Positions 10,747-57,387 of a stretch of DNA of 64,000 nucleotides are shown here, one piece after another. A program made the position numbers and the translations under genes. Within the stretch, counting starts at the first letter, position 1. Each line of letters begins with the position of its first letter. The notes below the pieces were generated by a model, which did not search any database, was not told where the DNA came from, and saw nothing but the letters and a program-made list of their open reading frames with translations. Origin of the DNA: a virus. The DNA lies in the IMG/VR virus record IMGVR_UViG_3300028909_000017, positions 61,415 to 125,414 of that record; one strand, written 5' to 3'.

Positions 10747-11253
10747 TCATAAAATATCGACATTTTTATAATATCGATAAGCCGGCTTTACAAATCCTTT
10801 ATTTTTCCATTGTTTACGGTTATTATTAACCCATTCAAAATTAATCGAATTATTTTCAATAATGATTTGTGTTATTTCACCCGAATTAATTTTAGATTCT
10901 ACGGTATTTTTAATAATGTCAATTCCATTTTGATCGGTTATTTTAAAACCGTATCCACCTGATTGTAATAATCTTTCGATCCAAATTACTGATCTATGGG
11001 AAATTATAGAATTATTTATAATTAATTTTCTATTGGCTTCCAATAAACATATTGCCAATATAGTTAGTAGACCTGCAATTGTGCTCTGGGTATTAATTTG
11101 AAAAATTTGTCTTGATTCATTACCGATATTGCAATCAATCGTAATATTTGCCAAACTATTTTCATTTTTATCTTCAATGAAATAATTTTCATACGAATCT
11201 TCTTTTTCAATCCAAATTATGTTACCTTCAAAAGTTGTAAATTGATTTTTCAT
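10747..11253 (-). CDS. GNAT-like paralog family B (lacks the N-terminal motif)
   Basis: AGLLTIL / WIERLL / PAYRYYKN similar to 11256, 39639 and 47467. Confidence 0.5.
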   Translation of the reverse strand: MKNQFTTFEGNIIWIEKEDSYENYFIEDKNENSLANITIDCNIGNESRQIFQINTQSTIAGLLTILAICLLEANRKLIINNSIISHRSVIWIERLLQSGGYGFKITDQNGIDIIKNTVESKINSGEITQIIIENNSINFEWVNNNRKQWKNKGFVKPAYRYYKNVDIL

Positions 11254-11255
11254 AA

Positions 11256-11786
11256 TTATTTAAGAAATATAGTTGTTGGGCCGGCTTCTGATTCGTTTGT
11301 GCGCAATTTATTTCGAGCTTTGAGCCATTCTGCATATAAATCATTTGAATCGGGAAATTCATCATATTGATTAGATATTTTAATTCCGCGGCCTCCGGAT
11401 TTAACTAATTTGATTAGCCAGACAATTCCGCTTTCGGTTAATCCCTCTTTATTATCAATTTTAAAATATTTTCCTTTTTCTAATAACGATTTGATAATAA
11501 TTGTTATTAATCCTTTAATTCTATTTTTTGGATCCTTGTTTTTCAATGTTAAATTTTCGACGCGTATCAATGTATAGCATTTATTCACCATCGGTAGTAA
11601 AACTCCGATATACGCCATCAAATGTTTGTTATGATCTACAATTACAAACATATCTTTAATTTGAAAAATTTTATGACCATTTGCAATTGCAACTGGCTTT
11701 TTACCATCTATATATGTTGGGTTCCATAAGATTTCTGGTATTTCATCTGCGACATCTAGCTCTTTTAAAATTTCTTTTATTTTCAT
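11256..11786 (-). CDS. GNAT-like paralog family B, MKIKEI N-terminus
   Basis: LIRVENL...GLITIII...LTESGIVWLIKL. Confidence 0.55.
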   Translation of the reverse strand: MKIKEILKELDVADEIPEILWNPTYIDGKKPVAIANGHKIFQIKDMFVIVDHNKHLMAYIGVLLPMVNKCYTLIRVENLTLKNKDPKNRIKGLITIIIKSLLEKGKYFKIDNKEGLTESGIVWLIKLVKSGGRGIKISNQYDEFPDSNDLYAEWLKARNKLRTNESEAGPTTIFLK

Positions 11787-12171
11787 ATTAATTTTTATAG
11801 GCCAAGTTCTTTTTTAAGGGTTTCAAGTTGATTTAATTTTTCTTGACGCTGGTTTAATTTTTTAACTTGGGTTGTCTCTTCCAAATATTGTTGCGCAGCT
11901 CTCACCGAATCTTTTGCGGTAAAAATATTAATCGGTAAGGTAATATGATTTGTCCAATCACTACCACGACAATATCCGCCATATTCAATCAAAACAAATT
12001 TACCTTCGGATTCAACCGAAAGTATCGAGCAATGATCGATGCCGAAAATTTTTAAAATCGGCATGATTTGTTTATCCCGAGCTTCTTTTGCATCGGATAA
12101 TTTTGTGTTGGCAATCCAAATTTTTTCGTTCAATTTATTGATATTGATCATATTTGTCTTTCAATATTTAA

Positions 12172-12201
12172 ATTATAGCATATGCGTAGGCAAAAAGTCA
12201 A
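12172..12201 (-). promoter_or_regulatory. sigma70-type promoter
   Basis: TTGACT-18-TATAAT. Confidence 0.7.
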
Positions 12202-12204
12202 GAA

Positions 12205-12391: not shown

Positions 12392-15300
12392 CTAGTTAAT
12401 CGGAATAGCGGCTGTGAACGAAATCCTTTCGTTATTGCCTATTGTGAATCCAAAAATGGTGTCACTCCACAAACTCGCATTATGCGTTATGTACGCAGAG
12501 GATGTATTTGAATACCCCCCTACAAAGATACCGACTTGTGTGCTTGTGAGTGGCTCTACGCTAGCTGAGATGGCGTCAAATGTTCCGGCTGAAAGTTGCG
12601 CACTTCCGACGTTTGTACCATCGATTCCCGCATACTGAGCACCACTAACAGTGGTAGGCAGTGGTGCGAGTGTGGTGTTTACCGTGTAACTTCCTGGGAG
12701 AGAAATCAGATATGCGCCGCTTCCAGATGCTGCACCCGCCGTCGATGCGGCATAGTAGGTAAAGTTCAAATAAAGAGTTTTTCCTAGAACAGCGTATAAG
12801 GCTGTCGTCGTTCGCGTGGCAGCGCGCGACGGCGTTGTCCCGGTCGCTACGATGCTTGGGGAGTATGCCTGCCACACCATAGCGTTGCACACCGTAACAG
12901 CCGGATTCTGTAACTCCCAATAAGTGCCGTCATAGGTGAACGTCTGTATCTTGAGTAACCCCAGATCACCAACCGCTGCTGCCTGCTGCCCACACACTGT
13001 TACCGTCTTCGCAGCCAGTCCGCTCACAGCAATAGTAGGCGTGATCGTTGTGCTGGCTGTCAGCGGAACAAACTTGATAATGGTGCCAGTGGAAAGAGCA
13101 GTGATGGTCGAAGCGCCATTCATCGCTACGGTGTATGCCAAGCCCGATCCGGTCCCTGCATCCGTTCCGGTTATCGACGTGCCGAGAGCATTTCCGCTGA
13201 TTGTGGTCTGAGCGACATACACATTGTTCGCGGGAAGTTCTTCGACATAAATGTATTGTGTAGAACCGTTGGTTGGAATGAGCGTGCCGGGATTTACTCC
13301 AGCTACATATCTAAAAGCCACATTGGTTGCTATGGCAGCCTGGACGATCCCTGAGCACGGGCCATTTGAAGGGGTAAGGTTAATTGCCCCAGCACTGTTT
13401 AGATAAAGGCATCCCGACGACGGGACCGATGCCGCCGACGTGATGTTATAGATGTCAAAATACGAAGAAGACCCGCTAGTCGATCCAAAGTTCACATAAC
13501 CTGGACTTGCCTGTATGGAATACGTATGACCCGCCGCTAGTGTTACAACACCCGTCGATGTGTTGATGCTTATGTCAGATCCTGCGCTTGTCTGGAGCGT
13601 GTTGAGAACAATATATCCGCCAGCAGACGGTTCCCCTTGGCTAACTGAACTATATGCCCGCAAGTAATTGGCAACCTGCGAAACGCTGCTCACTGCGAGG
13701 CTGCTCGATACAGTTTCGGCCCAAACATTCACGTATGGATTACTGCCGATGCTCGTCAGCAGTCCAACCGACCCAGTTTCCAGATGGACGTAAGTATCTG
13801 CGGTTGGCGTATAATACGCCTCGGCGTAAGGGGTATTTGGAGCGGAGTTCGATGTGGCCATGTCAGAATCAGTCTGTCCAACATTTCCGAGCGTCGTACC
13901 GCTACCACCAGTCGCACCAGTACGCCACAGGAATGTTACAAAACCATTATTTCCTGAGAAGTTAGCATAGCCGATAGACGCACGCAAATGATAAGTGTAT
14001 CCAGCCTTGAGAAAAAGTGTATTTCCACTTTGTGTTACAAGGGTTCCGCTCGACATGTCAGTGGTACCGAGCGCGATAACGACACCAGTTGCAGACACTG
14101 ATTGACCACTACTGGCGGCTGCATGTAAATAGCTCGCCGTAGCTGATGATCCTCCCCCACTTTGAGTCTGCCACGTAAGATACTTATTGGTAATATCCGT
14201 GACCACCGGAACTTGATTCGCTAGAGTTGGCGAGTTAGTAAAACCGTATCCTTGAAGACCATCGACAATTGGTACCGTGGCCGTTCCACCAAGGTCACCA
14301 GTCAGTGATACCGCGCCAAGAGTGCTGGTAGTTGCGGCGGGCAAGTCGCTAGCTGTAAGGATTCCGTATTGTTGTGCTGATGTGCTAGAACTCATAAGAA
14401 TCTGTCTAGCAGCAGTCGGAGCACTAACAGGTGCCGTTACACCATTAAGATTAACGACCGTAGCTACTCCACCGCTAGTCATCGATACGTCCCCACTAAT
14501 TGTTCTAGGTGTGTAGACACCCGCACTCGATGCGACTGGCATCTGTCCGACCGTTGCGGCAGTGCTACTTCCCGTCCCGCCTTCAGTTTGAGGAAGTGAT
14601 GTCGTGAGTCCGGTTAACGAAGTAATATTTGAGTTAGTTCCACTGGAGGCGGCACCAACTAATGACGAATATGGAATAGTTGTTGAGGCCGTATCTGCAC
14701 CACCTCCATTTGCGTATCGATATCCAGTTAATACACCAGCACCAGTTCCGCCTTGCGATGTACTTAATGGGGTTGTAAGACCAGTGAGCGAAGTAATGTC
14801 GCTATTAACACCACTTTTTGCTGCTACTAGATTTGTTCTAGAGGTGGTTGCATTGGAAACGTCGGAAAGATTGTTGGTTGCAAGTAATGAACCAGATGCA
14901 CTGGATGCTTGAACCCAAGTACCTGAGGTAGAATTATAAACGAATATTTTGCCACCATTTGCCGTTCCTTCAGTTACATACGCCGCGTCACCATTAGCCG
15001 GAACGCCTGTTCCGGCTTGGCCATCGGTTGTCAATGTCAAGGTTATTGACGTGCCCACTCCAGCGACGGAATAAACTTTGTTTAAATATGTTCCTGCACT
15101 AGCATTTGTGAATAATATTCGGTCATTATTAATCAATGCAAATCCGTCAGATGTGTATGCACTTGATCCGACGATTGTGGTTCCCGGTGCGGTAACAGTT
15201 GAATCTAAATGTTGTACTGCAGGACGCCAAGCAAGACCATTTACTTTGTTCCCAACATAAGTTACAACGGCTTTTTGACTAGGAATAATTGTGTTACTAT

Positions 15301-16748
15301 TTGCCGTTAATGCCCCATCCACACTAATTGCAGTTCCACTAACTCCAGAGGTTCCTGCATTTAAAATTAATGAACTTGCTCCTGTACTGTTACCTATGGT
15401 TACCGTCTTTGCATTTGCTCCCGTACCCACGCCGACTGGTCCACCAGTACCACTATCGAAAGTTGCTGCCCCAGTCGTTCCTGACGTAACTGATAATGCG
15501 GTTCCTGCCGCCGTATTCATACCGCCGGCTGGTATTGTAAGTGGTTCGGTTAATGTTACGGCTGTGGGTGAAAAAGTAGCAATTGTTTGGGTAGTAGTTG
15601 TTCCGCCAGCATTAATCGTAACTGATTTACCTGCACCTGCCGCTGCGAGATTTAGATTACCCGTTGTGTAACAATAACCATCATCTGCTCCACCGGTATT
15701 GAATCCAGAAACACTATATGCTGAAGAATTAATACCACAATCAATAAAGTTTGTTGTATTTGTACCATTGTCGGCAGTTGCTACAAAATCACTGGATGCT
15801 GAGGCATCACTCGATGTGTTTTGTACATTTATTTGAGTTGTTGTACCAACATTGCTCTGAGTAGCATTTATTACGGCTCCTGAAAGCGGAGTTCCACTAC
15901 CGACAGCCACAGATGTCGTAAAATTGCCAATTGGTCCAGTAAATGTTCCGGTAAATGTTGGACTTGCACTTGATAGCCCACCAATACTTGCTAACGCTGT
16001 TGCTGGGCTGTAAACATCCAATGTCCAACTCGCTGCCGGTATTGCATGTGGTCCGATAGTTACTGCATTGCCAGTTAATGTTCCACCGATATTTACCGAT
16101 GGGCCACTTAATGTTCCGGTATATGTTGGACTTGCACTAGTTAATCCGCCCAAATTTGTTAATGCGGTTGAAGCGGTATTTGAACCTGTGCCGCCTTCCG
16201 TAATAGGTAATGGAGTTGTTAGACTAGTCAACGAAGTAATATCAGAATTAATACCACTTTTGGCTGCCGAAAGATTTGCTCTGGCGGTAGTTGCATTTGT
16301 TAAATCGGATAAATTATTTGAGGAAAGCAGATAATTTAAACCAGATCCACCATAGGTAAATTCTGTTCGTGTATCAGTAATTGTTGAAATACTAGAACCA
16401 CCAGTAATTACAATTGCAATTGGCACGTCTGAGGAAGTAAAAATTGTCGTTTTAACAGCGGGAACACAATTTGATGCAGTGTTTAAATAAACATAATTTG
16501 TAGTGGATGCAGACATCGTTAATGTTCCACCACTATAATTAGCTATAGAACCATTGCAAAATGCGGTGCCAGAAGCAAGATTTAATATTAACCCAGCATT
16601 AATAGTCGGCCAATAACCAGGACCAGCACCTTGTACATATTTTGCGTTTACAGCATATATGGGTGCGGTTGATGTCTGCGCTTGCTGTGAATTGCCAACA
16701 CCGGCCATTATAATTAAAAATAAAAATAAAAATAATAATTTTTTTCAT
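12392..16748 (-). CDS. Large Gly/Ser/Thr-rich tail-fibre-like virion protein
   Basis: NNLSD...ARANL / NSDITSLTGLTTPL...GGTG fibre repeats; probable true start MKKLLFLFLFLII at 16748 if one A is removed from an A7 run. Confidence 0.75.
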
Positions 16749-27949: not shown

Positions 27950-28024
27950 TGGAGCCCCGAGCCGGAATTGAACCGGCGACATTTCGCTTACAAGGCGAAT
28001 GCTCTACAACTGAGCTACCGGGGC
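27950..28024 (-). tRNA. tRNA-Thr(TGT)
   Basis: Cloverleaf, CT-TGT-AA, CCA. Confidence 0.9.
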
Positions 28025-28709: not shown

Positions 28710-29384
28710 TTACTCCAAAGGTAGATTATTTTCTTCACGCGCCTTACGAATTTTAAATGAAGGCCAAATATCAATTTGGGCATTTTTGGATTCTGATAAA
28801 ACATATCGATAATTTTGATAATTACGATCAAGCCCAAAAAAAGATTTCAATTCATCTTCATTCTCACATCGTATAAAAGTTTCACCTGGTTTTGTTCTAT
28901 CATATACCGAAACAACATGCCCATCCGCAAATAATTTTTTCCAAATTTTGAAACCAGATGTACTCAATGTTTTATCACTGATTAATAAATTTTTAGGTGA
29001 ACCATCTAAATTTTTTAAATCGTTAAGAATTGCAAGATAAAGATCACTTGCATATGGACTTCCTGTTGCCTCAGGATTTTTGCCTGTTATTAACACAGCG
29101 ACATTTCTTGGTTTCTTTTCCAAAGAAGTTCCGACCCAAAATATACCATTTTTTTCAAACCAATAGTAAACATCATCCGTTAGTTCAATACGAAATAAAT
29201 TATTATTTAATTTTTCAATTGAATTTGGCTTTGCTTTTCTAATATCATCAATATCATTTTTAATTGTCGGCCATGCAGCAAATTCCATTACTTCAGGTTC
29301 TTCATATAACCACGATTCGTTAAAAGCGGTTCTTCCAAATTTGTTTTTCCAATTATTTGTTGATATAATTTCTTTAATTTTCAT
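28710..29384 (-). CDS. GNAT-like paralog family A
   Basis: MKIKEII; PYASDLYL; ISDKTLSTSGFKIWKKL; YQNYRYVLSES. Confidence 0.6.
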   Translation of the reverse strand: MKIKEIISTNNWKNKFGRTAFNESWLYEEPEVMEFAAWPTIKNDIDDIRKAKPNSIEKLNNNLFRIELTDDVYYWFEKNGIFWVGTSLEKKPRNVAVLITGKNPEATGSPYASDLYLAILNDLKNLDGSPKNLLISDKTLSTSGFKIWKKLFADGHVVSVYDRTKPGETFIRCENEDELKSFFGLDRNYQNYRYVLSESKNAQIDIWPSFKIRKAREENNLPLE

Positions 29385-29386: not shown

Positions 29387-30036
29387 TTAATCTTCTAATG
29401 GTAAATTATTTTCTTCCCTTAATTTTCTTAAACCAAAATATGAATATATTTCAGCAAATTTTTTCGATGATTCAGATAAAATATATTGATAATTTTGATA
29501 ACTTTTTCCAACCCCAAAATATTTTTGCATTTCTTCAAAGGACTTAAAATGTTCAAATGATTCTCCGGGTTTACTTCTGTTGTATAAAGAAATTTTATGA
29601 CCATCGTTAAATAATTTTTTCCGAATTTTAAATCCATCGTCACTAAGAGTTTTATCGCTGCTAAGACAAACATTATTTCCGCAATCCTTTAAAATCGATA
29701 AATATAAATCGATCGCATATGGTTGTTTTCCAGTATATTTTGGATCTTTTCCGACCATTCTAACAATGTAGGCATATTTTTGCTTTTCTAAAGTTACGCC
29801 CAAAACAATTTTAGAATTAATTTCAACCCAATAATAAATATTTTCTGTTAACTCCATTTTTTAATACCATTATTCAAGGTAATAATGTTATCCGGATAAA
29901 TCTGTATTATTTCTAAAATAACATTTTTAATACCCGGCCAAGAATTAAACGTCATTTTTTCGGGTGATTCCGACAAAAATGATCTATTAAAATATGTTCT
30001 ATCCGAGCAACTATTAATTATTTCTTTAATTTTCAT
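29387..30036 (-). CDS. GNAT-like paralog family A (frameshift near 29857)
   Basis: Two ORF halves join at an A-run; same motifs as 28710. Confidence 0.6.
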
Positions 30037-30054: not shown

Positions 30055-30132
30055 TGGTGCCCGTGGAGAGATTCGAACTCCCGACCCTTTGCTTAGAAGG
30101 CAAATGCTCTAATCCAACTGAGCTACACGGGC
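30055..30132 (-). tRNA. tRNA-Arg(TCT)
   Basis: Canonical cloverleaf, CCA. Confidence 0.95.
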
Positions 30133-30462: not shown

Positions 30463-31133
30463 TTAATCATCTGTTCCCAATGGTGTATTCTCTCGAATTT
30501 TTCGTATTCCGAAATTACTCATCACCGATCCTAACATATAATTTGATTCGCATAATACATATTGGTAATTCTGATATTTTTTATCAGTGTTAAAATAATT
30601 TTGCATATCATCTAATGTTAAAAATTTAACAAACGTTGCCCCTGGCTTATTTTTATCATATAAACCAACTCGATGTCCATTATTATACAACTTTTCCCAA
30701 ATTTTAAAACCATCTTCACTTAATTTATCATCACTCATCAATCGAATATTTTTTCCAATATCTTTTAAAATGTTTAAATACAAATCACTCGCGTAAGGTG
30801 CTTTTCCTGTAAAAATAGGATTTTTTCCCAGTAATTCACCAACAGCCGCCTGTGGTCGTAATGATAAAGAAACTCCGATGGCAAAAACATTATCAATTTC
30901 AATCCAATAAAATACATGCTCCAGGAAAACAATTTTTTAAGTCCATTAGTTAAGTCAATTATACCATTAGCGTATGGTATAAATTCATCTATTATATTTT
31001 TAATTCCTGGCCATGTTGGAAATTTCCCAATATTTATTGGTGATTCATACAACCAGGTTTCATTAAAATCAGTTCTACTTGTTTGCCCGTTGCCCCATTT
31101 TTTATTTTTTAATATAATTTCATTAATTTTCAT
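30463..31133 (-). CDS. GNAT-like paralog family A (frameshifted)
   Basis: MKINEII; split ORFs 30774-31133 and 30463-30783 carry family motifs. Confidence 0.6.
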
Positions 31134-31330: not shown

Positions 31331-31405
31331 TAGCCGCTCTCGGATTTGAACCGAGGACCTCTTCTTTGTAAGAGAAGCGTTCTAAACCATCTGGACTAAG
31401 CGGCT
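31331..31405 (-). tRNA. tRNA-Val(TAC)
   Basis: Cloverleaf, CT-TAC-AA. Confidence 0.9.
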
Positions 31406-31575: not shown

Positions 31576-32246
31576 TTAATCATCTGTTCCCAATGGCGTT
31601 TCTTCTCGAATTTTTCTAATACCAAAAATTCCAGTTAGATTACCCAATTCATTTTTTGATTCACACAAAACAAAATTATAATTTCGATAATTTTTATCTT
31701 TTTTGAAATATGATTCTATGTCTGCCAATGTAAGAAATTTTACAAATGTTTTGCCGGGTTTATTTTTATCATATATGGCAACCGTATGACCCAATGCATA
31801 TAATTTTTTCCAAATGTTAAATCCGTCTTTACTTAATTTATCATCACTTTGCAATCGAATATTTTTGCCGCAATCTGCGAGAATATTTAAGTAAAAATCA
31901 CTTCCATACGGCGGTTTTCCTTTCAATTCAGGATTTTTTTCCAGTATTTCTAATTACATTACTATATGGACGTTTTTCTAAAACAGATCCAATTGTTACT
32001 TTTCCATCTTTTTCCACCCCAATAAAATAATTGTTCTGACGTTTCGATTTTATATATTTCTACTGGCAATAAAATTGGTTTGAAAAAATTTTTCATATCC
32101 GAAATTATATCTACCAAACCATCATATGTAGGAAATTCCCCGGTATCTTCGGGTGATTCAATTAAAAAAGATTCGTTAAACGAGGTTCTATCTGTACTGC
32201 CAATTCCCCATTTTTTACTGCTCGAAAATAATTCTTTTATTTTCAT
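31576..32246 (-). CDS. GNAT-like paralog family A (frameshift near 32000)
   Basis: MKIKEL; halves join if one G is removed from a G-run. Confidence 0.6.
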
Positions 32247-32344: not shown

Positions 32345-32417
32345 TGATCCCCGTAGAATTCGAATCTACATTTACGGTTTCGAAGACCGTTACTCTATCC
32401 AATTGAGTTAGAGGACC
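32345..32417 (-). tRNA. tRNA-Arg(TCG)
   Basis: Cloverleaf, CT-TCG-AA. Confidence 0.9.
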
Positions 32418-32465: not shown

Positions 32466-33410
32466 TTACAAATCTTTAACCCAAAAGGTGCCTTCAAAAG
32501 TAGGTTCCATTACCATTTCTTTGGAAAACCCAAAACTTTTTGCCAAATTATCATAAAACATTTTAATTTTATTAATTTCTGTACCTACCAAGGGGTCCCG
32601 CTTACTTATGCTTTCTGCGGTATGTAAAGCAATATGTTTTATATTGCTTTTTCTTGCTATTGAAATTAAACTCGATAGGCCTTCTTCCATCCAATCACGA
32701 AATAAAAATACTAATCTATTTTTAATTTCTTCGAGTTTTTCAACTGTATAACCATAACGAGGAATCATTTCTTTTGCCTGATAAAATTGTTCATGACTTA
32801 TCTTGGCACGAAGCATTTCTTTCCCTTTTTCACCTAATGTCGATTCAAAATCTTCGTATGTATCCGATAATAAAATAGCGGTTGCTTGCTTAATTGAGTT
32901 TATGAGATCAGATTGCACTTCATCAATTAAAATCCAATCTTTATTAATATCATCAATTCTCATCCATCCCACTGTTGTTTTCGAAACAGGGTGACCGGAT
33001 TGTTGACTGCTCTGATTAACCATATCTAAATATTGAAATAATAAACGATCTTTTTTAATTTCGTTAGATATATTTGCATTACGATTAATTTGCATTACCG
33101 TTTGCTTAACTGGTCGAAAAGAAGTTTCTGGATCATTATATGATGCATAAGAAATATTATATTTTTTGGGCGAAATATAATTATCTAAATATGATTTAAC
33201 ATCTTCTATTTTAATATTTGGCTGATTATGTCGAATCTTTTCAATTACATAATTAAATTTTTGCCCAATTTGTTGAAATTTTTTTTGAAAATCGCGCCAA
33301 GAAATTGAAGAAATATTATTATTTTTCATCCATTGATATACTGTCGATATAGCTTCATATTCTGGCGATAACGTATGTTTAAGGTCGGTTGTTATTTCAT
33401 AAAGTCTCAT
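32466..33410 (-). CDS. Hypothetical protein with DEVQSD motif (polyvalent-protein-like domain)
   Basis: GWMRI...ILIDEVQSDL; MRLYEI N-terminus; CATAAATA upstream. Confidence 0.5.
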   Translation of the reverse strand: MRLYEITTDLKHTLSPEYEAISTVYQWMKNNNISSISWRDFQKKFQQIGQKFNYVIEKIRHNQPNIKIEDVKSYLDNYISPKKYNISYASYNDPETSFRPVKQTVMQINRNANISNEIKKDRLLFQYLDMVNQSSQQSGHPVSKTTVGWMRIDDINKDWILIDEVQSDLINSIKQATAILLSDTYEDFESTLGEKGKEMLRAKISHEQFYQAKEMIPRYGYTVEKLEEIKNRLVFLFRDWMEEGLSSLISIARKSNIKHIALHTAESISKRDPLVGTEINKIKMFYDNLAKSFGFSKEMVMEPTFEGTFWVKDL

Positions 33411-36667: not shown

Positions 36668-37339
36668 TCAATTAATTACTCCTAAATTATTATCTTCACG
36701 AATTTTTCGGGTTGCAAAATGTCCCATTACATTTCCAAAACCAAACTGCGACTCACATAAAACATAACTATAATTTCGATATGATTTATCTTTTTTGAAA
36801 TATTTTTCCATTTCCTCCAATGATGAAAATTTTTCTAAAGTTTGTGTAGGTTTATCCTTTGCATAAAGACAAACTTTATGACCGGAATTAAATAATTTTT
36901 TCCAAATTTTAAAACCATCTTCACTTAATGTTTCATCACTGTGCAAGCAAATATCTTTTTTTGAATCTTTAAGAATGTTCAAATAAACATCAGAAGCAAA
37001 TGGTGGTCGTTTTCTAAATGCGGGATCTTTGCCACTCATACGAACTACTAATGCGTACGGTCTTTTTTCTAATGAAATTCCCAATATTATTTTTTTCTCA
37101 TTTGTAATCCAATAATATATTTGGTCGGTTAATTCTAATTTATGAAAATTTGGTTTAATATTGACCACTTTACTTTCATAATATTCTAAATAATCTTCAA
37201 TTATATTTTTAATTCCCGGCCATGATTCAAATAGGTGATTTTCTGGTGACTCGACTAGATATGTTTCATTGAAGGAACTTCTACCGGTAATATCATTATT
37301 CCATTTGCCGCCAATTCCTAACATTTCATTAATTTTCAT
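36668..37339 (-). CDS. GNAT-like paralog family A
   Basis: MKINEM; PFASDVYL; SDETLSEDGFKIWKKL; TATAAATA upstream. Confidence 0.6.
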   Translation of the reverse strand: MKINEMLGIGGKWNNDITGRSSFNETYLVESPENHLFESWPGIKNIIEDYLEYYESKVVNIKPNFHKLELTDQIYYWITNEKKIILGISLEKRPYALVVRMSGKDPAFRKRPPFASDVYLNILKDSKKDICLHSDETLSEDGFKIWKKLFNSGHKVCLYAKDKPTQTLEKFSSLEEMEKYFKKDKSYRNYSYVLCESQFGFGNVMGHFATRKIREDNNLGVIN

Positions 37340-37477: not shown

Positions 37478-37553
37478 TGGTCTCCGAGGCCGGATTTGAA
37501 CCGGCGCCATATCGCCCCGAACGATAGATGCTACCAGGCTACACTACTCAGAG
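37478..37553 (-). tRNA. tRNA-Pro(CGG)
   Basis: C1-G72, TT-CGG-GG, A73-CCA. Confidence 0.9.
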
Positions 37554-39638: not shown

Positions 39639-40265
39639 TTATAGTAATTCATCATTTTTGAAATAATGATAATACGGCTTTAATAGACGATTATCATTCC
39701 ATTGGTTATTATCTTCGTTTAATTTCGGTACATCAATTGATTTATTTTCGATAAAAATTGAAGTTGGGCCAGTTGTATCCAAAGAATTATCTGAATTAAA
39801 GTCGTCAAAAGATTTATTCCATTCAGCCTGAATTAATTTTACTGTTGGAATTTCTCCAGTTTGTGTTTTTAAATTTAAACCTGCACCATTCTTTTTGATT
39901 ATTTTAATTAACCATCTTAGTCCGGAATATGTTAATTTTTCGGTATCTTTAATTACAAATTTTAATCCCGATGCAATTAATGAAACAACTATCATTGTTG
40001 CTAATCCACCAATACCCGAAATATTTTCAAGTCGAACCAATGGTAATAATTTTTCATTAGTTTTTTCTGTAGCAATATACGCTTGCAATTCATTTTGGGC
40101 ATCAACGATGATAAAAAAATTATTAGCTTTATCGGTCAATTTTAAAATTTCATGCCCTTCAATATTTGAAAAATGTTCGGTATATTGAATAAGTGACGGG
40201 TTCCAATTTAACTTTGGGCAAATTGAAGTCATTCCAATTTCATTTAATATTTCTTTAATTTTCAT
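39639..40265 (-). CDS. GNAT-like paralog family B
   Basis: True start MKIKEILNE; LVRLENI...GLATMIV...LTYSGLRWLIKI. Confidence 0.55.
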   Translation of the reverse strand: MKIKEILNEIGMTSICPKLNWNPSLIQYTEHFSNIEGHEILKLTDKANNFFIIVDAQNELQAYIATEKTNEKLLPLVRLENISGIGGLATMIVVSLIASGLKFVIKDTEKLTYSGLRWLIKIIKKNGAGLNLKTQTGEIPTVKLIQAEWNKSFDDFNSDNSLDTTGPTSIFIENKSIDVPKLNEDNNQWNDNRLLKPYYHYFKNDELL

Positions 40266-40274: not shown

Positions 40275-40352
40275 TGGTAGGCGTGGTTGGAATTGCGCCA
40301 ACGACCTCGAAATTATCAGTTTCGCGCTCTAAACTAACTGAGCTACGCGCCT
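40275..40352 (-). tRNA. tRNA-Ile(GAT)
   Basis: Cloverleaf, CT-GAT-AA, CCA. Confidence 0.9.
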
Positions 40353-40657: not shown

Positions 40658-41275
40658 TTAAGGATTTATATAATCTTTACTACTACTCAACGAACCGTAA
40701 AATAGGCTGTCATAATCTCTTCCATTTTTCTTTTTCCGTGTATTATTACGATCCCAATTTTCTAGTAATTCTGGAGAAAAAATATTTTTTCTAATAAGTA
40801 ATACGGTTGAATCTTGTTCGTTCCAAATTTCATTTTCAGGAACTAATGATGCCAAAATTATATTTTTTGTTTCCATATTTAATACGTAGATACTTATTTT
40901 TTCACTTGGATGTTTAATTAAACTTTTCCATGCATTTTTCGACTCATCTGTTTGGTGAGTGTCGGATAAAATTTCACTATGTCGATTAACCGAAGTATTA
41001 ATTAAATATCTGAAACATCCTTGACCTTGATAATTTATATCTGTTTCCGTATACGAAATTTGAAATCTATTACCCGGCGTTCTAATTTCAAGGTGTAAAA
41101 AAGCTATCAAATTATCATTGTTAAATAACCCCAAATAATGGTCCTCTAATTCGATTAGTTCAGCAAATTTTAAATTTCCAAATGCAGATATCTTTTTTAG
41201 ATCATCAAATATCCATTGATATTTTTCCATTGGATCAGATCGACTAACCAAACTTACAATTTCTGTTATTTTCAT
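40658..41275 (-). CDS. GNAT-family acetyltransferase-like protein
   Basis: YQGQGCF acetyl-CoA motif; SDTHQTDESKNAWKSL; MKITEI N-terminus. Confidence 0.7.
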   Translation of the reverse strand: MKITEIVSLVSRSDPMEKYQWIFDDLKKISAFGNLKFAELIELEDHYLGLFNNDNLIAFLHLEIRTPGNRFQISYTETDINYQGQGCFRYLINTSVNRHSEILSDTHQTDESKNAWKSLIKHPSEKISIYVLNMETKNIILASLVPENEIWNEQDSTVLLIRKNIFSPELLENWDRNNTRKKKNGRDYDSLFYGSLSSSKDYINP

Positions 41276-45342: not shown

Positions 45343-45352
45343 GGTATGCTGT

Positions 45353-45422
45353 TAGTTACAATGGGATTCGAACCCATAACCACGGCTCAACCGCCGTTGC
45401 TCTACCATTGAGCTATGTAATT
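45353..45422 (-). tRNA. Pseudo-tRNA with 6-nt anticodon loop
   Basis: Canonical D and T arms; ACGGC-GGTTGA-GCCGT anticodon arm. Confidence 0.55.
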
Positions 45423-45658
45423 ATTAAGCATACCAATTTCAAAAATTTATTGCTATGGAACTCTTATCCTGGATAAACAAGACGGTTTAATTGTATCAAT
45501 CCTATTCAGCCATTCTATCTAAACTGTATTGCTCTGGAATTGAAACGACGGATAACTCACGCAGGGATTTATTGAGCAGACGCTTATTCATCCATTCCAG
45601 TTAAATCTAAACTTTGCCAGTATTTCAGGCCACTAGCCAGACCTAAATAACATCATTT

Positions 45659-47466: not shown

Positions 47467-48021
47467 TTAGAATAATTCTTTATCGCCAACCCATTTAATC
47501 ATGGGCATAAGTAGATCAATATTTTTCTTTCTTTGCTTGGAAAATGCTTCTGCCAAACTATTTTTGGGGTTAATAATTATTCCTATTTTACCCTCATCAT
47601 TAAACCAATCTTTATCTAATTCTTCAGAAGATACTGGATTATTATTATAATCGGTAATAGAAAAATATTTTTGAAGCCGAGCAACTTTTAATAACCATTT
47701 AAATCCATCAAAAGTTAAATCTTCCGATGGCTTAATTTTTATTTGCCGTTCTTTTTCCAATATTGCCAAAATAATTATCGTTATTAATCCTTTCTTTTTG
47801 GAAATATTTCCGAGTCGAATAAGTTCATTATTTAATGTTGTTATTACCAATGAAGTTAAACAATTATTTTCATCTATAGTAAAATATGCAATCGAAGAAG
47901 TTCCAATACTTTTGTAGATTTTTTCTAAATCTACAATTTTATATAATTTAGAATTCAATGGCCTCTTTTTACCTGATGCACTTACTAATTCTGATGACCG
48001 TGTAATTTCATTAATTTTCAT
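47467..48021 (-). CDS. GNAT-like paralog family B
   Basis: MKINEI; LIRLGNI..KGLITIII...LTFDGFKWLLKV. Confidence 0.55.
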   Translation of the reverse strand: MKINEITRSSELVSASGKKRPLNSKLYKIVDLEKIYKSIGTSSIAYFTIDENNCLTSLVITTLNNELIRLGNISKKKGLITIIILAILEKERQIKIKPSEDLTFDGFKWLLKVARLQKYFSITDYNNNPVSSEELDKDWFNDEGKIGIIINPKNSLAEAFSKQRKKNIDLLMPMIKWVGDKELF

Positions 48022-49190: not shown

Positions 49191-50480
49191 TTAAACAATT
49201 ATATGTTCAAATATTCCTGATTTTATTGAATTAAATCTAAAGACACACGAATTAATATCTTCGAGTGGAACCCGGTACTTTATTCCGGACTTCTTTATTG
49301 CATTATGTATTTCTACCCATTTTGAAGCAATTGGCGAAGTATTATCTTCTCTTAATATTTTCGCAAGTAAAAGTCCCACGGCTTCCTCTTCCTTCCATTG
49401 GTTTAGAACGCGAACTTTACTTAAATTGGTATTTGGATACATACACAAACTTTTTACATATTTGTTTGGTCCACGTCTTGCTATTTCTTTTGCTGCGGCA
49501 CACGGGTCTGGTAAATTCCTGAAAAGAACATTACCGATTGTACTCGAATAAGCACAGTTTACTAATTTACATTCGATATTATATCGGTCACTTAGTTTTC
49601 TGATTTGCCACTGAAACAAGTTTCGGTTCCATTCATTGTTTACTAACCGATTGAAACCACGTCCTTTCTTCGTATTTCGAGAGCCCATTGTTAGTTCTTC
49701 TAAAACAACCATTGATACATGAAAATGTACAGCAAGTTTTATAATTCGACATGCAATTTCTTTTGTTTCGTGATTTCGTTTGTTTTTATTTTTACGAGTT
49801 TTATCAGTAAATTTAAATACTTCGTGAAAAACATCACTGCCATTATCGGTAATTGAAATGCCAATATTATTTGGATTCATATCAATACCAAGTATTCGAT
49901 TTGTTATTTTATCGATATTTTCGATTTTTTCTTGCTCGTAAGTAAGGCAAATTTGATTCTTTTTAAGTAAAACCTGAATCGGCATTTTACTAATATTATT
50001 CAGCAAATAAATTATTTCTTTTCTCTGATTTTTACTTATTTTGAATGGTATTTCTATTTTATTATTCTTGTTTGGCTTATAAATTAAAATATCCTGATCT
50101 AATTTTGAAAAATCAAATAACCGATTTGATTTCTGATTGGTTTCGCCCTGAATTTTAACCGGTCTATTTCTTAATTCATGCCATTGATCAGCGGATATTT
50201 TATTTGACCTTCTCTTTTCAAAGGTTTTTCTTCCACCCCAAATAATTTTATAATCTTTTTTCTTTGATTTATAAATGTTAAATTCTTGAACTGCATCTAA
50301 AACGGCCATTCGTTGAAGATAACATCCTAAATTACTAAACATGGATTTTAGTAAAATACTAATATCTTTTTGAATACTTCCCTCAATAATTCTTTTAAAT
50401 GCAAATCTAAATGCCGATGAATATTCCCGTTGAAATGGAATTATTGGTAAATCGGCATTTAATTTTAGTGTCTTCTGCAT
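49191..50480 (-). CDS. tnpB: IS607-type TnpB RNA-guided nuclease (no zinc finger)
   Basis: RuvC-I GIDMN, RuvC-II VLEEL, VNCAYSSTIG, RuvC-III DPCAAAKEIARR. Confidence 0.85.
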   Translation of the reverse strand: MQKTLKLNADLPIIPFQREYSSAFRFAFKRIIEGSIQKDISILLKSMFSNLGCYLQRMAVLDAVQEFNIYKSKKKDYKIIWGGRKTFEKRRSNKISADQWHELRNRPVKIQGETNQKSNRLFDFSKLDQDILIYKPNKNNKIEIPFKISKNQRKEIIYLLNNISKMPIQVLLKKNQICLTYEQEKIENIDKITNRILGIDMNPNNIGISITDNGSDVFHEVFKFTDKTRKNKNKRNHETKEIACRIIKLAVHFHVSMVVLEELTMGSRNTKKGRGFNRLVNNEWNRNLFQWQIRKLSDRYNIECKLVNCAYSSTIGNVLFRNLPDPCAAAKEIARRGPNKYVKSLCMYPNTNLSKVRVLNQWKEEEAVGLLLAKILREDNTSPIASKWVEIHNAIKKSGIKYRVPLEDINSCVFRFNSIKSGIFEHIIV

Positions 50481-51711: not shown

Positions 51712-53133
51712 CTAAACTTCAGCAAGTGAACGAATTTCATCAAGAGTCTGGTGGCGAATAACTTTCCCATTACGAAAGACCAATTCTAATTGATCTCCAT
51801 ATACACCATTTCCAGATTCATCCTGCACTGTGCTAAACAAACCGGTACTTTCAGAATAAATTAATACTGGCCGACCTTTGAATGATGCCTTTGTTGGATC
51901 TCCCTTTGGCTGCTTAAATACCGGAGTATCTACATCATTGAGTCGAATATTACAGAATTTCATTGCCGATTTCATTGAATCTCTGTTTACTTTTTGCAGA
52001 AGTCCACCGCCCATACCCACGATAACATTTTCCACACTCCAACCAGATAACCTCAGTGTTTCATATAATTTGCGAATGCTAAAAATATCCATACCATCGC
52101 CCCAAAGTAATCCAACACAAGGGCTAAGAACTTTAAAACCTTTACTATTGACGGTATAGCCAAATTTTTCAGCCAAGATGTCGAGTAAAATTGGAACCTT
52201 GATTGATGGATCTCCTGAATCTGGACGGGCAACAACTTTTGTTTTACCATGAAGAATTTGATCACGGAAAGTTCCACCCATAATTTCTCGAACGAAATAT
52301 TCATCATCGTAACTATCAATAACCATACTTACAACCGGCGCATCTTTATAAACTCCCAAAATTCGACTAACAACATTTCGTTCGCCGTTAGGACCTTCCA
52401 TCGTCATTACAAAATGCTCACTAGCAGGAACACTATAAGCTGATACGCGAGGAGCATCATAATATTGATGCAGCAAACTCATTGCAATTCCGGTATCTGT
52501 TCCCTTAAAATTAATAAGATGCGCAGCTCCGCCAATAGCTGCCTGTGTTCCACAAGATACCGCTCGCCCACCAAAATCATGCAACATGAACGGTAAGCCA
52601 TCATAAGATTCGGATGTAATAGTAAGATATTCCTTGGCTAACTTTTTAACTTCCCGACTCTGCGTAGCAACGATACTCCCGTACCAATTACGCATGAATC
52701 GAGTTTCACACCATCCGGGCAGCCATGCACAATTTTCATCGGTACTTTCAACCGTGAAAACAACATTATTAACGCCGTTATTGGAAATATTAAATGGGCG
52801 TCCTTCCTTGATTGCACGAATTTCAATCGGAAGTCTCCCATCATATTTGTCAAGAATATATTGCCATTGTGCCTTAGGGTATGGGAATCCATCATAAAAA
52901 TGGACCTGACTGTCAGCATATGCTTCGTCAAGATTTTCCTGAGTGAAGAATTTGCCTTCAAATTCGGCCATTAATTGATATTGCAATCCAAAAAATACGG
53001 CTTCGCTATAAATACCTCCTCGATTGCAATAATAATTCATTGCTTGTGAAAGAGTATGTGGGAGCATCGCGGGGTGGGTTTTTTTGTAGGAATCGTCATC
53101 AAGAAGCGGATTAATTACGAGTGGTTGTGGCAT
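51712..53133 (-). CDS. nadV: Nicotinamide phosphoribosyltransferase
   Basis: DSYKKTH, LHDFGGR, GTDT, VPASEH, RPDSGDP, GDG, GMGGGLLQ. Confidence 0.95.
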   Translation of the reverse strand: MPQPLVINPLLDDDSYKKTHPAMLPHTLSQAMNYYCNRGGIYSEAVFFGLQYQLMAEFEGKFFTQENLDEAYADSQVHFYDGFPYPKAQWQYILDKYDGRLPIEIRAIKEGRPFNISNNGVNNVVFTVESTDENCAWLPGWCETRFMRNWYGSIVATQSREVKKLAKEYLTITSESYDGLPFMLHDFGGRAVSCGTQAAIGGAAHLINFKGTDTGIAMSLLHQYYDAPRVSAYSVPASEHFVMTMEGPNGERNVVSRILGVYKDAPVVSMVIDSYDDEYFVREIMGGTFRDQILHGKTKVVARPDSGDPSIKVPILLDILAEKFGYTVNSKGFKVLSPCVGLLWGDGMDIFSIRKLYETLRLSGWSVENVIVGMGGGLLQKVNRDSMKSAMKFCNIRLNDVDTPVFKQPKGDPTKASFKGRPVLIYSESTGLFSTVQDESGNGVYGDQLELVFRNGKVIRHQTLDEIRSLAEV

Positions 53134-53732
53134 TATATTCCTTTCAATTATATTACGATTATATACTATTTCCGTTATTAAAGCAAGAATTAATTTCGGT
53201 CAAAACCGACCGAAGTTCCGATACCGTCTTGTGTACGCGGCTTGTTTTTCATGCTTCGAAGCCTATTTAAAACAATATTATACGGTTGTTCGAGGCACAA
53301 AACAGCAGCAGATAATTCTCTTAGATGTGCAATGCTTAATTGATCGGTATCAACTACCCATTGTTTAAGTTCTTTCTTTGACAATTCAGGAGCAACCGTT
53401 TGCAAATACATTTCACGGGCGGCGGCGGTTGGCATTCCGACCAAAATACGTTCATCAAATCGTGAAGGTCGATTAATAATTCGAGCACCCAAACGGTCTG
53501 GATAATTTGTCGTGGCAACCATAACGATATTCTCTACTTGATTTTCACCGTCTAATAATGCTAATAATTCGTGTTCACCATAACGAGAAATAATTTCATC
53601 AATATCCTCGAGAATACAAATAATTCTTCGATCGGGTTCAATCCTGCGTAACGCTGACAATCCATCAGATGTCATGGAAGGATTATTACACATGATAAAG
53701 TAACTTTCCCAATAAAAACAGTACAACGAATA

Positions 53733-55020
53733 TTAAACAATTATATGTTCAAATATTCCTGATTTTATTGAATTAAATCTAAAGACATTAGACCTGATTG
53801 AATCTAATGGAACCCGGTACTTTATTCCGGACTTCTTTATTGCATTATGTATTTCTACCCATTTTGAAGCAATTGAAGAACAAGAGTCCTCCAATATTTT
53901 CACAAGTAAAAGTCCCGCGGCTTCCGCTTCCTTCCATTGGTTTAGAACGCGAACTTTACTTAAATTGGTATTTGGATACATACACAAACTTTTAACGTAT
54001 TTGTTGGGGCCTCTACGGGCTATTTCTTTTGCCGCGGCACATGGATCTGGTAAATTTCTGAATAAAATATTTCCAATAGTTGAACTATATGCGCAATTAA
54101 CTAATTTACATTCGATGCCGAATTTATCTGATAATTTTCTTATTTGCCATTGAAACAAATTTCGGTTCCACTCGTTGTTTACTAGCCGATTGAAACTACG
54201 GCCTTTCTTTGCATCTTTTGCGCCCATTTTAAGTTCTTCAAGAACAACCATTGACACGTGAAAATGTATGGCAAGTTTAATAATTCGACATGCAATTTCT
54301 TTGGTTTCGTGATTTCGTTTGTTTTTATTTTTACGAGTCCGATCAGTAAATTTAAACACTTCATGAAATACGTCTTTACCCGAATCGGTAATTGAAATGC
54401 CAATATTATTTGGATTCATATCAATTCCAAGTATTCGATTTGCTATCGGTTGTTCTATGAATACTTTTTCTTGTTCATAAGTTAGACAAATTTGATTCTT
54501 TTTAAGTAAAACTTGAATCGGAATCTGACCGATTTTATCTAATAAATAAGTTATTTCTTTTCTCTGATTTTTACTTATTTTGAATGGTATTTCTTGATGA
54601 ATATTTTTACTGGGTTTAAAAATTAAAATATTATCTGATAATTTTGAAAAATCAAACATTCGATTTGATTTTTGATTGGATTCACCCTGTATTTTAACCG
54701 GCCTATTTCTTAATTCCTTCCATTGATCAGACGATATTTTATTTGCACTTCGTTTTTCAAAGTTCTTTCTTCCACCCCCAAACAATTTTATAATCTCGTT
54801 TCTTGGATTTATAAATGTTAAATTCTTGTACGGCATCTAAAACAGCCATATGTTGCAGATATGAACCCAAATTAGGGAATTTGTCTTTTAGAAATGATCG
54901 AACTTCTTTTTGGGTATAATTATCTGTAATTCTTTTGAATGCAAATCTAAATGCCGATGAATATTCCCTGTGAAATGGAATTATTGGTAACTCGGCATTT
55001 AATTTTAGTGTCTTCTGCAT
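53733..55020 (-). CDS. tnpB: IS607-type TnpB (frameshift in G-run near 54775)
   Basis: Closely similar to 49191-50480; one extra G relative to that paralog. Confidence 0.8.
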
Positions 55021-55024
55021 ATTT

Positions 55025-55630
55025 TTATTTATATATATCCGCAGAAAGCAGCTCTTTAGTGATTGTTTTTAGTTGTTTCCTTCTATTGCTATACATTTTC
55101 ATACTGAAATAATGAATAATAGAAATTAAATCTTGGGTAAGTTCTGATTGAAAATCTTCTTCCGCAGTTGCATTAATAACAACAATTTTAACATTCATTT
55201 TATTGAATAATTGCTGAAATGATTCAAATCCAAATCGAACTAATCTATCTTTATATGTCACATATATAGTGTCTACTTCATTATTTGCTACTAGATCTAG
55301 TAGCTGGATAAATCCAGCGCGATTTTCATTCATTCCCGAACCAATATCTTCAATTGATTTATCTGGAATAATTCCGTTTGCTGCGGCATATGTGTGTAAT
55401 AATTGGGTTTGTCGTTTAAGATCATCCACTTGTTTGGTATTTGAAACCCGAGCATATAAAATATGAATCTTTTTAGTTGTTTCGCCTTTAAACTTAGTCA
55501 GATCATACAAATAAATTTTATTTGCAACTTTTATGAAGTCAATTTGATTGGTTTTTCGCCAATAATACAATTTTTGTGGGGAAATACCCAAAAATTTAAT
55601 TACTTCCCTTGCACTGCTATATTTTGCCAT
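55025..55630 (-). CDS. tnpA: IS607 TnpA serine recombinase
   Basis: N-terminal HTH, YARVS, DIGSG, YKDRLVRFG, EL.QDLISII..FS.KMYS.R. Confidence 0.9.
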   Translation of the reverse strand: MAKYSSAREVIKFLGISPQKLYYWRKTNQIDFIKVANKIYLYDLTKFKGETTKKIHILYARVSNTKQVDDLKRQTQLLHTYAAANGIIPDKSIEDIGSGMNENRAGFIQLLDLVANNEVDTIYVTYKDRLVRFGFESFQQLFNKMNVKIVVINATAEEDFQSELTQDLISIIHYFSMKMYSNRRKQLKTITKELLSADIYK

Positions 55631-56718
55631 GATAAATACCTCCTTCTATTATTTGTATTTATCATTAATGGTTGTATAAACTGCTAGTTAACAATACCAT
55701 TATTTTCGATCAATGTTTTACTTAGTAAGGTTAATGTTGCTGTTTTGCCGCTTCCAGGAGGGCCCCAAAGCAAAATACCTCTCTTGTAAAGTAATCCATG
55801 ATTACGATATCGGTCTTCCATTTTCCAAAAAGTTCTCATACCAGATAATACCTGCTCACTTGAATTATCCGGAAGCATAATTAATGAATCAGTAATAATT
55901 TTAATTCTATTTAGATAAAGTCCATAATCATCACGCTCAAAAGAATATGTGCCTGGTGGCAATTTTTCTCGAGTTAATCCGGCAGGTCGGAAGGTATCAT
56001 TTTTTCCAATTTGCCATTGTCGGAATTCTATATTTGTTGAATCTCGATCGGTTGTTTGACGTTTACCTGGTGATGGGTCACAGTCATTTCGACTATTACT
56101 GCTTAATCGTTTATTAGGATTATTTTCCAATATTTCATTCAATTGATCTTCATCATTCATTCTACTCTTCCTTGTCCTTAAATTTGATCGAAGAATTAAA
56201 CCATTCATTAATTTTTGAAAGTATGAAATTATTTTGGTGGCTGTTATACTTTTTGCAAAGCCAATTTTTAATACGAATACCCAAAAGCATAAATGGAACA
56301 GCAATTAATGTAACAAGAATCATAACTCCCATATACAAATAGATAATAGGAGAAAAAATTAATTGCAGCCAAAAAGAAAATGGGGTAATATAATCAATAT
56401 GTTGAATACCCCACATACTCACAATTTTATATACTAACGAATTTTTATCGATTAACATCTTATTGCTCCAATTTCTTCACAAGTTTTTCTGAAAAATATT
56501 CTTTCCAAGTTCCGATATTCCATTCGCACGGTTGAATATTATTATAAATATGACCCATTATAAATTCTGGCTTAATAGAATCAATTACTTCAGCCATACC
56601 GATACGCATAATTACATTTTCCCAATTCTTTACAATAATTTCATCATTATTTTCGGAAAAGTCCCAGCTATATTCATATACTATATCGCCGTTTGATTTT
56701 TCTCTATATTTCATTATT

Positions 56719-57387
56719 CTATTCTTCCAATGGTAAATTATTAATTTCTCGATGCAAACGTATTCTAAAGGATGCCCATGTTTCCGCCTGAGTTTTTAAT
56801 GATTCAGATAATACAAATCTCCACTTTTGAAATTCTTTACCTTTATGATAGAAATTTTTAAGTTCATCTTCTGAATTAATACGAGAAAACGATTTACCCG
56901 GCTCATCGGTATTATAAACTAGCAATTTACATCCCTGTTTAAATAATCTATGCCATGTATTAAATCCTGTTTGACTTAGGGTTTTATCACTGATAATTAC
57001 ATCATTTTTAAGATCTTTAAGAATTAATAAATATAAATCACTTGCGAACGGAGGTTTACTTTTATAATTTTTTGATTTACCCGACATTATAATTGCATAT
57101 CCCCGTGGTTTTCTTTCCAAGGAAACCCCGAGTATAATTTCATGATTATCATTTTCCACCCAAAAATAAATTAAATTAGTTAATTTTAATTTATAAATAT
57201 TATTTTCTAATGGTTTAATTTTGTCATGCGCAATTTGTTTTATTTCTTCTATATCGTGCTTTAATATTTCCCAAGTCGGAAATTCTAAGACATCAGGTGA
57301 CTCAAATAAAAAGGTATAATTAAATGCATCTCGCCCATATTTTCCAGACCAGGTCCTTTTTGCATGTATAATTTCATTAATATTCAT
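56719..57387 (-). CDS. GNAT-like paralog family A
   Basis: MNINEII; PFASDLYL; ISDKTLSQTGFNTWHRL. Confidence 0.6.
   Translation of the reverse strand: MNINEIIHAKRTWSGKYGRDAFNYTFLFESPDVLEFPTWEILKHDIEEIKQIAHDKIKPLENNIYKLKLTNLIYFWVENDNHEIILGVSLERKPRGYAIIMSGKSKNYKSKPPFASDLYLLILKDLKNDVIISDKTLSQTGFNTWHRLFKQGCKLLVYNTDEPGKSFSRINSEDELKNFYHKGKEFQKWRFVLSESLKTQAETWASFRIRLHREINNLPLEE

Follow-up and report, generated by a model that had tools for sequence, protein, structure and literature searches.

The uncultivated viral record IMGVR_UViG_3300028909_000017 is a contig of 125,414 bases (59% complete as estimated by CheckV), of which we analysed bases 61415–125414; a stretch of 64,000 bases that we refer to as the window. 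With a GC content of 34%, the window carries 29 tRNA genes, all on the minus strand and spread between 9.1 and 47.2 kilobases (kb), and near-identical DNA is found in many sequencing runs labelled as peat metagenome. We treat the contig as that of a large T4-related phage because, outside the window, it encodes an RnlA-type RNA ligase / tail-fibre attachment protein (phrog_562, E 4e-64), a baseplate wedge protein and a CCA-adding enzyme and, within it, a nicotinamide phosphoribosyltransferase, an NMNAT-Nudix protein, a GMP-reductase/IMPDH-like enzyme and an alanyl-tRNA-synthetase core fragment. Our subject is a set of small open reading frames (ORFs) interspersed with the tRNA genes, which a first-pass annotation, made from the sequence alone, had described as 11 paralogues resembling GNAT proteins (acyl-CoA N-acyltransferases). 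All 11 ORFs lie on the minus strand where it had placed them, with the motifs quoted for each, and the two families that it had distinguished, A and B, are real; the set as a whole is not one family by sequence, however, and three of the entries assigned to family A are the C-terminal pieces of longer, interrupted genes.

Family A is a solid family of paralogues: when the 299 ORFs of the window are all compared with one another by BLASTP, its members pair at E-values of 1e-19 to 1e-67. Only three copies in the window are intact, each on the minus strand: 28710..29384 (224 amino acids, starting MKIKEI; matched by the family A profile at E 4.4e-72), 36668..37339 (223 amino acids, starting MKINEM; the query for our structure model) and 56719..57387 (222 amino acids), the last of these lying beyond the tRNA zone and directly 3′ of the NMNAT-Nudix gene. 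They differ from one another by 55–62%, their reading frames still being open. A seventh copy is found upstream of the window (G000:C1:27041-27676, plus strand).

The other three copies, likewise on the minus strand, are frameshifted; the listed entries 29387, 30463 and 31576 correspond to their C-terminal pieces, and the N-terminal pieces form separate ORFs (29848–30036, 30774–31133 and 31962–32246, respectively). Each break falls within a homopolymer run. The copy at 29387..30036 has one frameshift in a run of six A residues (29857–29862), with the C-terminal piece (29387–29857) having an ATG of its own; the copy at 30463..31133 also has one, in a second A6 run (30933–30938), its C-terminal part being open over 30472–30936 and lacking a nearby start codon. 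The copy at 31576..32246 carries two insertions, with frameshifts in a G4 run (32017–32020) and an A7 run (31934–31940), and is a probable pseudogene. These breaks are not assembly slips, because wherever contigs from three other DNA runs bridge a site they match it, letter for letter and gapless (two, three, two and two of the three runs, taking the four sites in the order just given); the three runs come from one habitat and possibly from one campaign. The adjacent copies at 29387 and 30463 share only ~50% protein identity, yet each is short of one A at the homologous A-run and at the homologous codon (NG[I/L]KK|...), with both halves free of stop codons and a shift to the -1 frame restoring the family sequence. 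This shared shortfall could reflect a hotspot at which slippage recurs, programmed frameshifting or a switch that turns the gene on and off. Parts of the frameshifted copies, at window positions 30410-30606, 31723-31873 and 32063-32300, are overlain by contigs of run X19, an RNA-labelled library; such an overlap is no proof of transcription.

Family B is real but looser (BLASTP E 4e-30 to 1e-5), and its genes are again all on the minus strand: 10747..11253 (168 amino acids, the most diverged copy and one without an MKIxEI start), 11256..11786 (176 amino acids, starting MKIKEI), 39639..40265 (208 amino acids; the query for our second structure model) and 47467..48021 (184 amino acids, starting MKINEI). 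ORF 39639 has its likeliest start in an ATG at position 40265; the TTG first listed for it, at 40301, falls inside the gene for tRNA-Ile (40275–40352). The remaining member of the set, ORF 40658 (40658..41275, minus strand, 205 amino acids; referred to below as C), is a single-copy and near-canonical phage GNAT candidate, with the residues YQGQGCF at the position of the acetyl-coenzyme A (acetyl-CoA) loop and a segment, SDxxxxDExxxxWKxL, that is like that of family A. For family A we assembled an alignment of 118 sequences, consisting of four copies from this phage plus 114 of 150 listed matches, the 36 others (fragments, partial matches and the much longer fusions P0099, P0120 and P0154) being left out. 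Run against the 559 ORFs of the contig, the resulting profile has its best match outside the family in C (E 1.5e-4) and its next in the family B gene 47467 (E 0.028); the profile aligns the SD...W-K-x-L segment. Profile-profile comparison does not join A, B and C (hhalign probabilities of 2.7%, 0.4% and 2.5%), and by sequence they are not one family.

That both families adopt the GNAT fold, a call that had first been made on motif resemblance, is borne out by structure models and by the best 50 solved-structure neighbours of each, nearly all of which are acetyl- or acyltransferases or GNAT-like domains. The AlphaFold2 model of family A, computed from the 118-sequence alignment, has a predicted local distance difference test score (pLDDT) of 88.7 and a predicted template-modelling score (pTM) of 0.82, and comprises strands at residues 73–80, 83–92 and 97–104, a helix at 115–126, a strand at 131–133, a helix at 140–151 and a strand at 155–160. 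In the model of family B we see the same succession: strands at 48–54, 60–67 and 73–81, a helix at 88–98, a strand at 102–105, a helix at 113–124 and a strand at 130–134. Both fit the core order of the GNAT fold, β2-β3-β4-α3-β5-α4-β6, arranged in a mixed sheet, to which family A adds an N-terminal segment and a long C-terminal helix. A Foldseek search of the PDB with the family A model returns mostly GNATs at probabilities of 0.63–1.00, the E-values being weak (best 2.5e-3); among predicted viral structures, 19 match at E ≤ 1e-3, including proteins labelled ‘NAT_SF domain’ as well as some from Agrobacterium phage Atu_ph07 and Achromobacter phage Motura. The best structural neighbours of both models also include Rv1916 and the C-terminal domain of ICL2 from Mycobacterium tuberculosis, which we take to be regulatory. 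For C, whose sequence matches nothing significant among those of the PDB, we judge the fold from its ESM Atlas neighbours and Pfam scores: the nearest Atlas clusters are phage GNAT clusters, and Pfam gives sub-threshold GNAT matches (E 0.13 and 0.16). In the Atlas, A and C have partly the same viral clusters as neighbours; 18–48% of the members of these clusters match PF00583, with one further neighbour of C reaching up to 62%. A GNAT fold is thus probable for C also.

The GNAT pyrophosphate-binding loop has the form Q/R-x-x-G-x-G/A and lies between β4 and α3. In family A, just one of 118 members has [QR]xxGx[GA] in the β4-α3 segment, the position being occupied instead by G-K-x-P-...-P-P-[Y/F]-A-S-D-L-Y; in family B the loop is canonical in one of 12 members, with its first glycine invariant. 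The loop of C, which had been annotated as an explicit QGQG acetyl-CoA motif, reads Q-G-Q-G-C-F and so fits the consensus save at the last position. C and family B may still use acyl-CoA, whereas for family A ordinary use of acetyl-CoA is doubtful. Six residues are nearly invariant in family A (K104, Y119, S134, D135, W146 and Y159), and from the secondary structure, which puts them at the end of β4, in α3, just past β5 and on β6, they appear to surround the usual GNAT cleft. A conserved pocket therefore seems likely and, because the loop has been replaced while a polar cluster (K104, Y119, S134-D135 and Y159) has been kept, family A probably either has another ligand or holds CoA in an atypical manner.

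Family A proves to be a large family of metagenomic phages, an exhaustive profile search of 1.84 billion proteins finding 253 cluster representatives at E ≤ 1e-3, of which 129 are at E ≤ 1e-30. The homologues come only from viral records and metagenomes; the present contig has seven loci, G001 has five copies, G003 two, and G002, G004 and G005 one each. A word-indexed protein search gave only three relatives for family A and two for family B, the latter rising to 11 with a profile. Among 50,697 deposited phage genome records, tblastn finds no match to either 36668 or the reductase-linked copy of locus L005, and megablast none to window positions 28000–38000. Pfam assigns no family above cut-off to nine window proteins or to the 118 family A members, and PHROGs leaves eight of the nine without a family, the sole match of 36668 being to phrog_35177 (E 4.8e-4), a family of unknown function. 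For 39639 by itself, and likewise for 40658, a search for related loci turned up no viral relative, and an alignment of the 47467 subgroup led to a single related locus, L016, which is without a tRNA gene.

The genomic company kept by family A differs between this lineage and the rest. Within the 9–48.1 kb zone, a tRNA gene lies no more than 200 nucleotides upstream of five of the ten family genes, as opposed to four of 42 other ORFs (Fisher p = 0.008); three of these five are neighbouring tandem units and so not independent. The tRNA genes concerned, all on the minus strand, are tRNA-Arg(TCT) at 30055..30132, 18 nucleotides upstream of the family A start at 30036; tRNA-Val(TAC) at 31331..31405, 197 nucleotides upstream of the start at 31133; tRNA-Arg(TCG) at 32345..32417, 98 nucleotides upstream of that at 32246; tRNA-Pro(CGG) at 37478..37553, 138 nucleotides upstream of the intact family A gene 36668–37339; and tRNA-Ile(GAT) at 40275..40352, 9 nucleotides upstream of the family B gene 39639–40265. 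Several family genes begin 9–20 nucleotides past the 3′ end of a tRNA, which suggests co-transcription. For copy 56719 the nearest tRNA gene is 9.5 kb away; the tRNA scan covered the window, and the seventh family A copy lies outside the region scanned. The interleaving noted in the first-pass annotation is therefore genuine in the window, but most relatives lack it: of the 12 related viral loci at which family A occurs, only one has a tRNA gene within ~5 kb, the other 11 having none. The exception is the closest relative, L002 (from record G001), where the tRNA-then-gene layout recurs among 15 tRNA genes, with four full copies and a fragment of family A and one copy of family B.

At eight of the 12 related loci the neighbour of family A is instead a ribonucleotide reductase (class I NrdA/NrdB or a class II enzyme) together with a glutaredoxin. 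Usually, then, one or two copies stand beside the reductase, and it is only in this lineage and one relative that the family has multiplied among tRNA genes. At L005 and L007–L013 the gene is a conserved member of the reductase operon, placed between NrdA and NrdB or after the class II enzyme; the NrdA gene of L007 appears to be interrupted by an inserted ORF. In the literature library that we searched, no published account of such a GNAT-like gene within the reductase operons of phages came up. Because 11 of the 12 related loci have no tRNA gene nearby and eight have the reductase, we take the tRNA link to be that of one lineage's plastic region: a matter of position, arising from a shared plastic region and probably from co-transcription, rather than an indication of a tRNA substrate. 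As a more general correction, where a phage region is plastic, proximity to tRNA genes gives little reason to suppose a tRNA substrate.

This bears directly on the function that was first proposed, in which toxins of the TacT/AtaT kind would acetylate host aminoacyl-tRNAs with the phage tRNAs serving as a resistant replacement set. A GNAT fold common to A, B and those toxins, the excess of family genes close behind a tRNA and the recurrence of that layout in L002 all speak for such a scheme, and toxins of this type do exist, a tRNA-bound TacT being cited in PMC13219725. Linkage in related genomes, named beforehand as a test of the idea, is found at one of 12 loci as against eight with the reductase, which weakens the proposal; the acetyl-CoA loop is lost from 117 of 118 family A members, no Pfam GNAT model scores above its cut-off, none of eight small neighbouring ORFs matches a Pfam antitoxin family at E ≤ 0.05, and copy 56719 is remote from any tRNA. 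The function first proposed is not supported, and we regard it as very unlikely.

The reductase neighbourhood raises another possibility, namely that family A does no catalysis and is a GNAT-like protein of phage nucleotide metabolism that binds ligands or serves as a scaffold, perhaps regulating or partnering the reductase, with the copies seen here being drifting duplicates. Its position beside reductase, NrdB and glutaredoxin genes in eight of 12 loci would fit, as would the lost CoA loop, the presence of ICL2 and Rv1916 among the structural neighbours and the frameshifts in three of seven loci. On the other hand, K104, Y119, S134, D135 and Y159 are predicted, from the model and alignment, to lie on or beside the elements that line the usual active-site cleft, the intact copies have diverged by more than half and yet remain open, and no ribonucleotide reductase gene was found on this contig. 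On balance such a role seems improbable to us, if well worth keeping in mind.

A family with an otherwise well-conserved GNAT core from which the CoA loop is missing might also be a transferase independent of acetyl-CoA, taking its acyl group from aminoacyl-tRNA in the manner of FemX or phage Mu Mom and acting on nucleotides, DNA or proteins. Mom itself (PMC13219725) has a GNAT fold and modifies adenine in DNA with glycine taken from Gly-tRNA, a serine and arginine residues being essential to it. The two contexts of family A, in tRNA clusters (this contig and L002) and in nucleotide-metabolism operons elsewhere, would sit well with this, but Pfam gives no match at E ≤ 1, including to any Mom family that it contains, and among the best 50 neighbours in either exhaustive structure search none is named Mom or FemX (nor TacT or AtaT), which does not amount to exclusion. 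We consider a Mom/FemX-like activity very unlikely.

A second feature cuts across the families. Of the contig's 559 ORFs of at least 45 amino acids, 17 begin with M[KRN][ILV]xE[ILVM], and the revised start at 40265 adds one more. At least six groups without relation to one another are represented among these tagged proteins. Family A contributes six genes or N-terminal pieces and family B three genes; with them stand C, five paralogues encoded further upstream, outside the window, and ORFs related to none of these, for instance 5603..6385 (minus strand, 260 amino acids, starting MKINEI, no Pfam family) and 32466..33410 (minus strand, 314 amino acids, starting MRLYEI, which fits the tag in relaxed form; no Pfam family passes the cut-off). 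Synonymous codons vary among the tagged copies, with glutamate kept at position 5, and since the codons differ the constraint acts at the level of protein. At the level of DNA, the strict pattern for MKIxEI occurs nine times in the contig as against none for the reversed control. The tag is carried by 10 of 12 family B homologues versus 11 of 118 members of family A; it is absent from all 12 family A ORFs printed from eight reductase-linked loci, and from the contig's best-scoring and seemingly ancestral family A copy. It thus behaves like a portable add-on.

In every tagged protein residues 3–5 read [I/L]-x-E, fitting the motif at which the T4 prohead protease cuts, after the glutamate. The T4 internal proteins offer a precedent: a capsid targeting sequence is their sole common feature and propeptides are cleaved after glutamate (PMC3012670, PMC9026906, PMC5694885), with the protease obeying an [L/I]-x-E rule and Alt shedding just six residues at ITE-6 (PMC5694885, PMC9026906). 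The T4 genes ipI, ipII and ipIII lie to either side of the tRNA cluster in the T4 record and share its strand; ipI starts MKTFKEF and the other two MKTYQEF. Iyer et al. 2021 (PMC7824862) also place GNAT and ADP-ribosyltransferase domains within injected polyvalent phage proteins, and a T4-type prohead protease (PF03420) is encoded by two of five records that carry family A. We suggest, more speculatively than for the fold, that M-[K/R]-[I/L]-x-E-[I/L/V/M] at the N-terminus could be a T4-style signal for capsid targeting and prohead-protease cleavage after [I/L]-x-E, by which the tagged proteins would be loaded into the head and later injected with the DNA.

Taken together, our tentative reading, to which we would give slightly less than an even chance, is of three separate and very diverged phage-specific branches of the GNAT fold, amplified in a plastic, tRNA-rich region and acting as effectors that are possibly packaged in the head. 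Directed at the host or at the phage, they would modify targets or bind ligands, as is thought for phage GNATs such as Rac. A good deal weighs against this. As regards fold and activity, no sequence method puts A or B in the GNAT clan, Pfam having no match above cut-off, and in searches of PDB sequences the family A profile does no better than RibT (E 0.15) and that of family B has no match; the canonical loop is nearly gone from both families, as described above; and, because family A lacks that loop and has the C-terminal domain of ICL2 among its best structural neighbours, it may be no enzyme at all. Three of its seven loci, moreover, are broken genes. As regards packaging, which we regard as weakly supported, neither a prohead protease (S77 or S78; PF03420, PF04586) nor the T4 capsid protein (PF07068) was found on the 59%-complete contig, G001 (rated 100% complete) is also without PF03420 and PF04586, and the two relatives that do have PF03420 are without the strict MKIxEI pattern. 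Nor is there enrichment of TATAAATA, the late-promoter octamer of T4 (18 occurrences against 13.8 expected); the genes sit in an early-looking region where they are probably co-transcribed with the tRNAs, and the tag itself amounts to no more than five or six residues. Assignment of the upstream paralogues as ADP-ribosyltransferases is unconfirmed, Pfam and PDB sequence searches with L001:26-775 and a Pfam search with L001:778-1452 coming back empty.

Much of this would be expected if the proteins were unpackaged, GNAT-fold enzymes of host takeover, working in the cytoplasm early or midway through infection as Rac does, with MKIxEI serving translation initiation or protein stability. Rac of phiKMV-like phages reportedly acts on RNA polymerase, and Iyer et al. 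2021 (PMC7824862) predict Rac-like action for numerous jumbo-phage GNATs; the early-looking, single-strand region with its probable co-transcription, the lack of TATAAATA enrichment and the absence of a detected head protease on the contig all agree with such a role. What it explains less readily is the start peptide, conserved as protein through synonymous change, Glu 5 included, common to several unrelated families and missing from the reductase-linked orthologues, and matching both the [L/I]-x-E rule and the very short propeptide of Alt. We therefore place this alternative on the unlikely side, while giving it appreciable weight.

Should the tag indeed be a capsid-loading signal, it would provide a ready list of proteins injected by an uncultured T4-related phage, three GNAT-fold families among them. 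A bolder reading, which takes up the comparison with Mom and FemX, would make family A a new class of GNAT-fold transferase that uses aminoacyl-tRNA in place of acetyl-CoA to modify nucleotides, DNA or host proteins, and that has here been multiplied, tagged for the head and brought in part under the control of homopolymer slippage. Dependence on aminoacyl-tRNA would explain a reductase-operon context in most phages and a tRNA context in this lineage; even so, we see it as a long shot. Whichever holds, a family that is without a name in Pfam or PHROGs now has a fold, a conserved neighbour in ribonucleotide reductase and an oddity, that of a GNAT core minus its CoA loop.

Several other features of the contig deserve record. 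Genes related to tRNA or RNA include, besides the alanyl-tRNA-synthetase core fragment (E 3e-22), a Pol-beta-type nucleotidyltransferase, the CCA-adding enzyme and the RnlA-type RNA ligase (window 33510-34430 and 44050-44586; G000:C1:37357-38694 and 53017-54108). ARAGORN reports one tRNA with a two-base anticodon (window 45351-45423) and unusually long tRNAs for Cys (92 nucleotides), Tyr (96 nucleotides) and Lys(CTT) (93 nucleotides) at 9135-10447. A phage NAD (nicotinamide adenine dinucleotide) salvage pair is formed by the nicotinamide phosphoribosyltransferase (51712-53133) and the NMNAT-like cytidylyltransferase-Nudix protein (57400-58503), the latter gene having an intact family A copy immediately 3′ of it. 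Nearby, a serine-recombinase (Resolvase) gene adjoins one of two ORFs of 367–429 amino acids, 84% identical and without a Pfam family, in an element that seems to cut an AAA-ATPase gene into two pieces (49191-50480, 53733-54836, 55025-55630, 53190-53726 and 55684-56304). Lastly, an ORF of 1438 amino acids at 12392-16708, midway in the region, is without a Pfam or PHROG match.

Set beside known systems, the families most resemble the GNAT superfamily at large, Rac included, in the order of their strands and helices and in nearly all of their best structural neighbours; phage GNATs have already been predicted as host-modifying effectors (PMC7824862). They differ in that A, B and C are without Pfam or PHROG assignment, family A having also replaced the loop and gained an N-terminal segment and a C-terminal helix. 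Like the TacT/AtaT toxins they are small and have the GNAT fold, and in this one lineage they lie close to tRNA genes, five copies being directly preceded by one; in contrast to those toxins, they have no recognisable antitoxin as neighbour, family A is without the canonical loop, and the conserved neighbour in other phages is a reductase. Mom of phage Mu and FemX provide the example of a GNAT fold that does not rely on acetyl-CoA and a conceptual link between GNATs, tRNA and nucleic-acid metabolism, although Pfam detects no sequence similarity. The closest parallel to the start peptide is found in IPI-III and Alt of T4, where a short N-terminal peptide beginning MK is likewise borne by unrelated proteins, [I/L]-x-E is the cleavage rule of gp21, and the ip genes flank a tRNA cluster. 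Here the peptide is M-K-I-x-E-I, with glutamate at position 5, rather than the MKTYQEFIAE of T4, packaging and cleavage are predicted only, and the protease gene was not found on this fragment; the cargo, if such it is, would consist of GNAT-fold paralogues.

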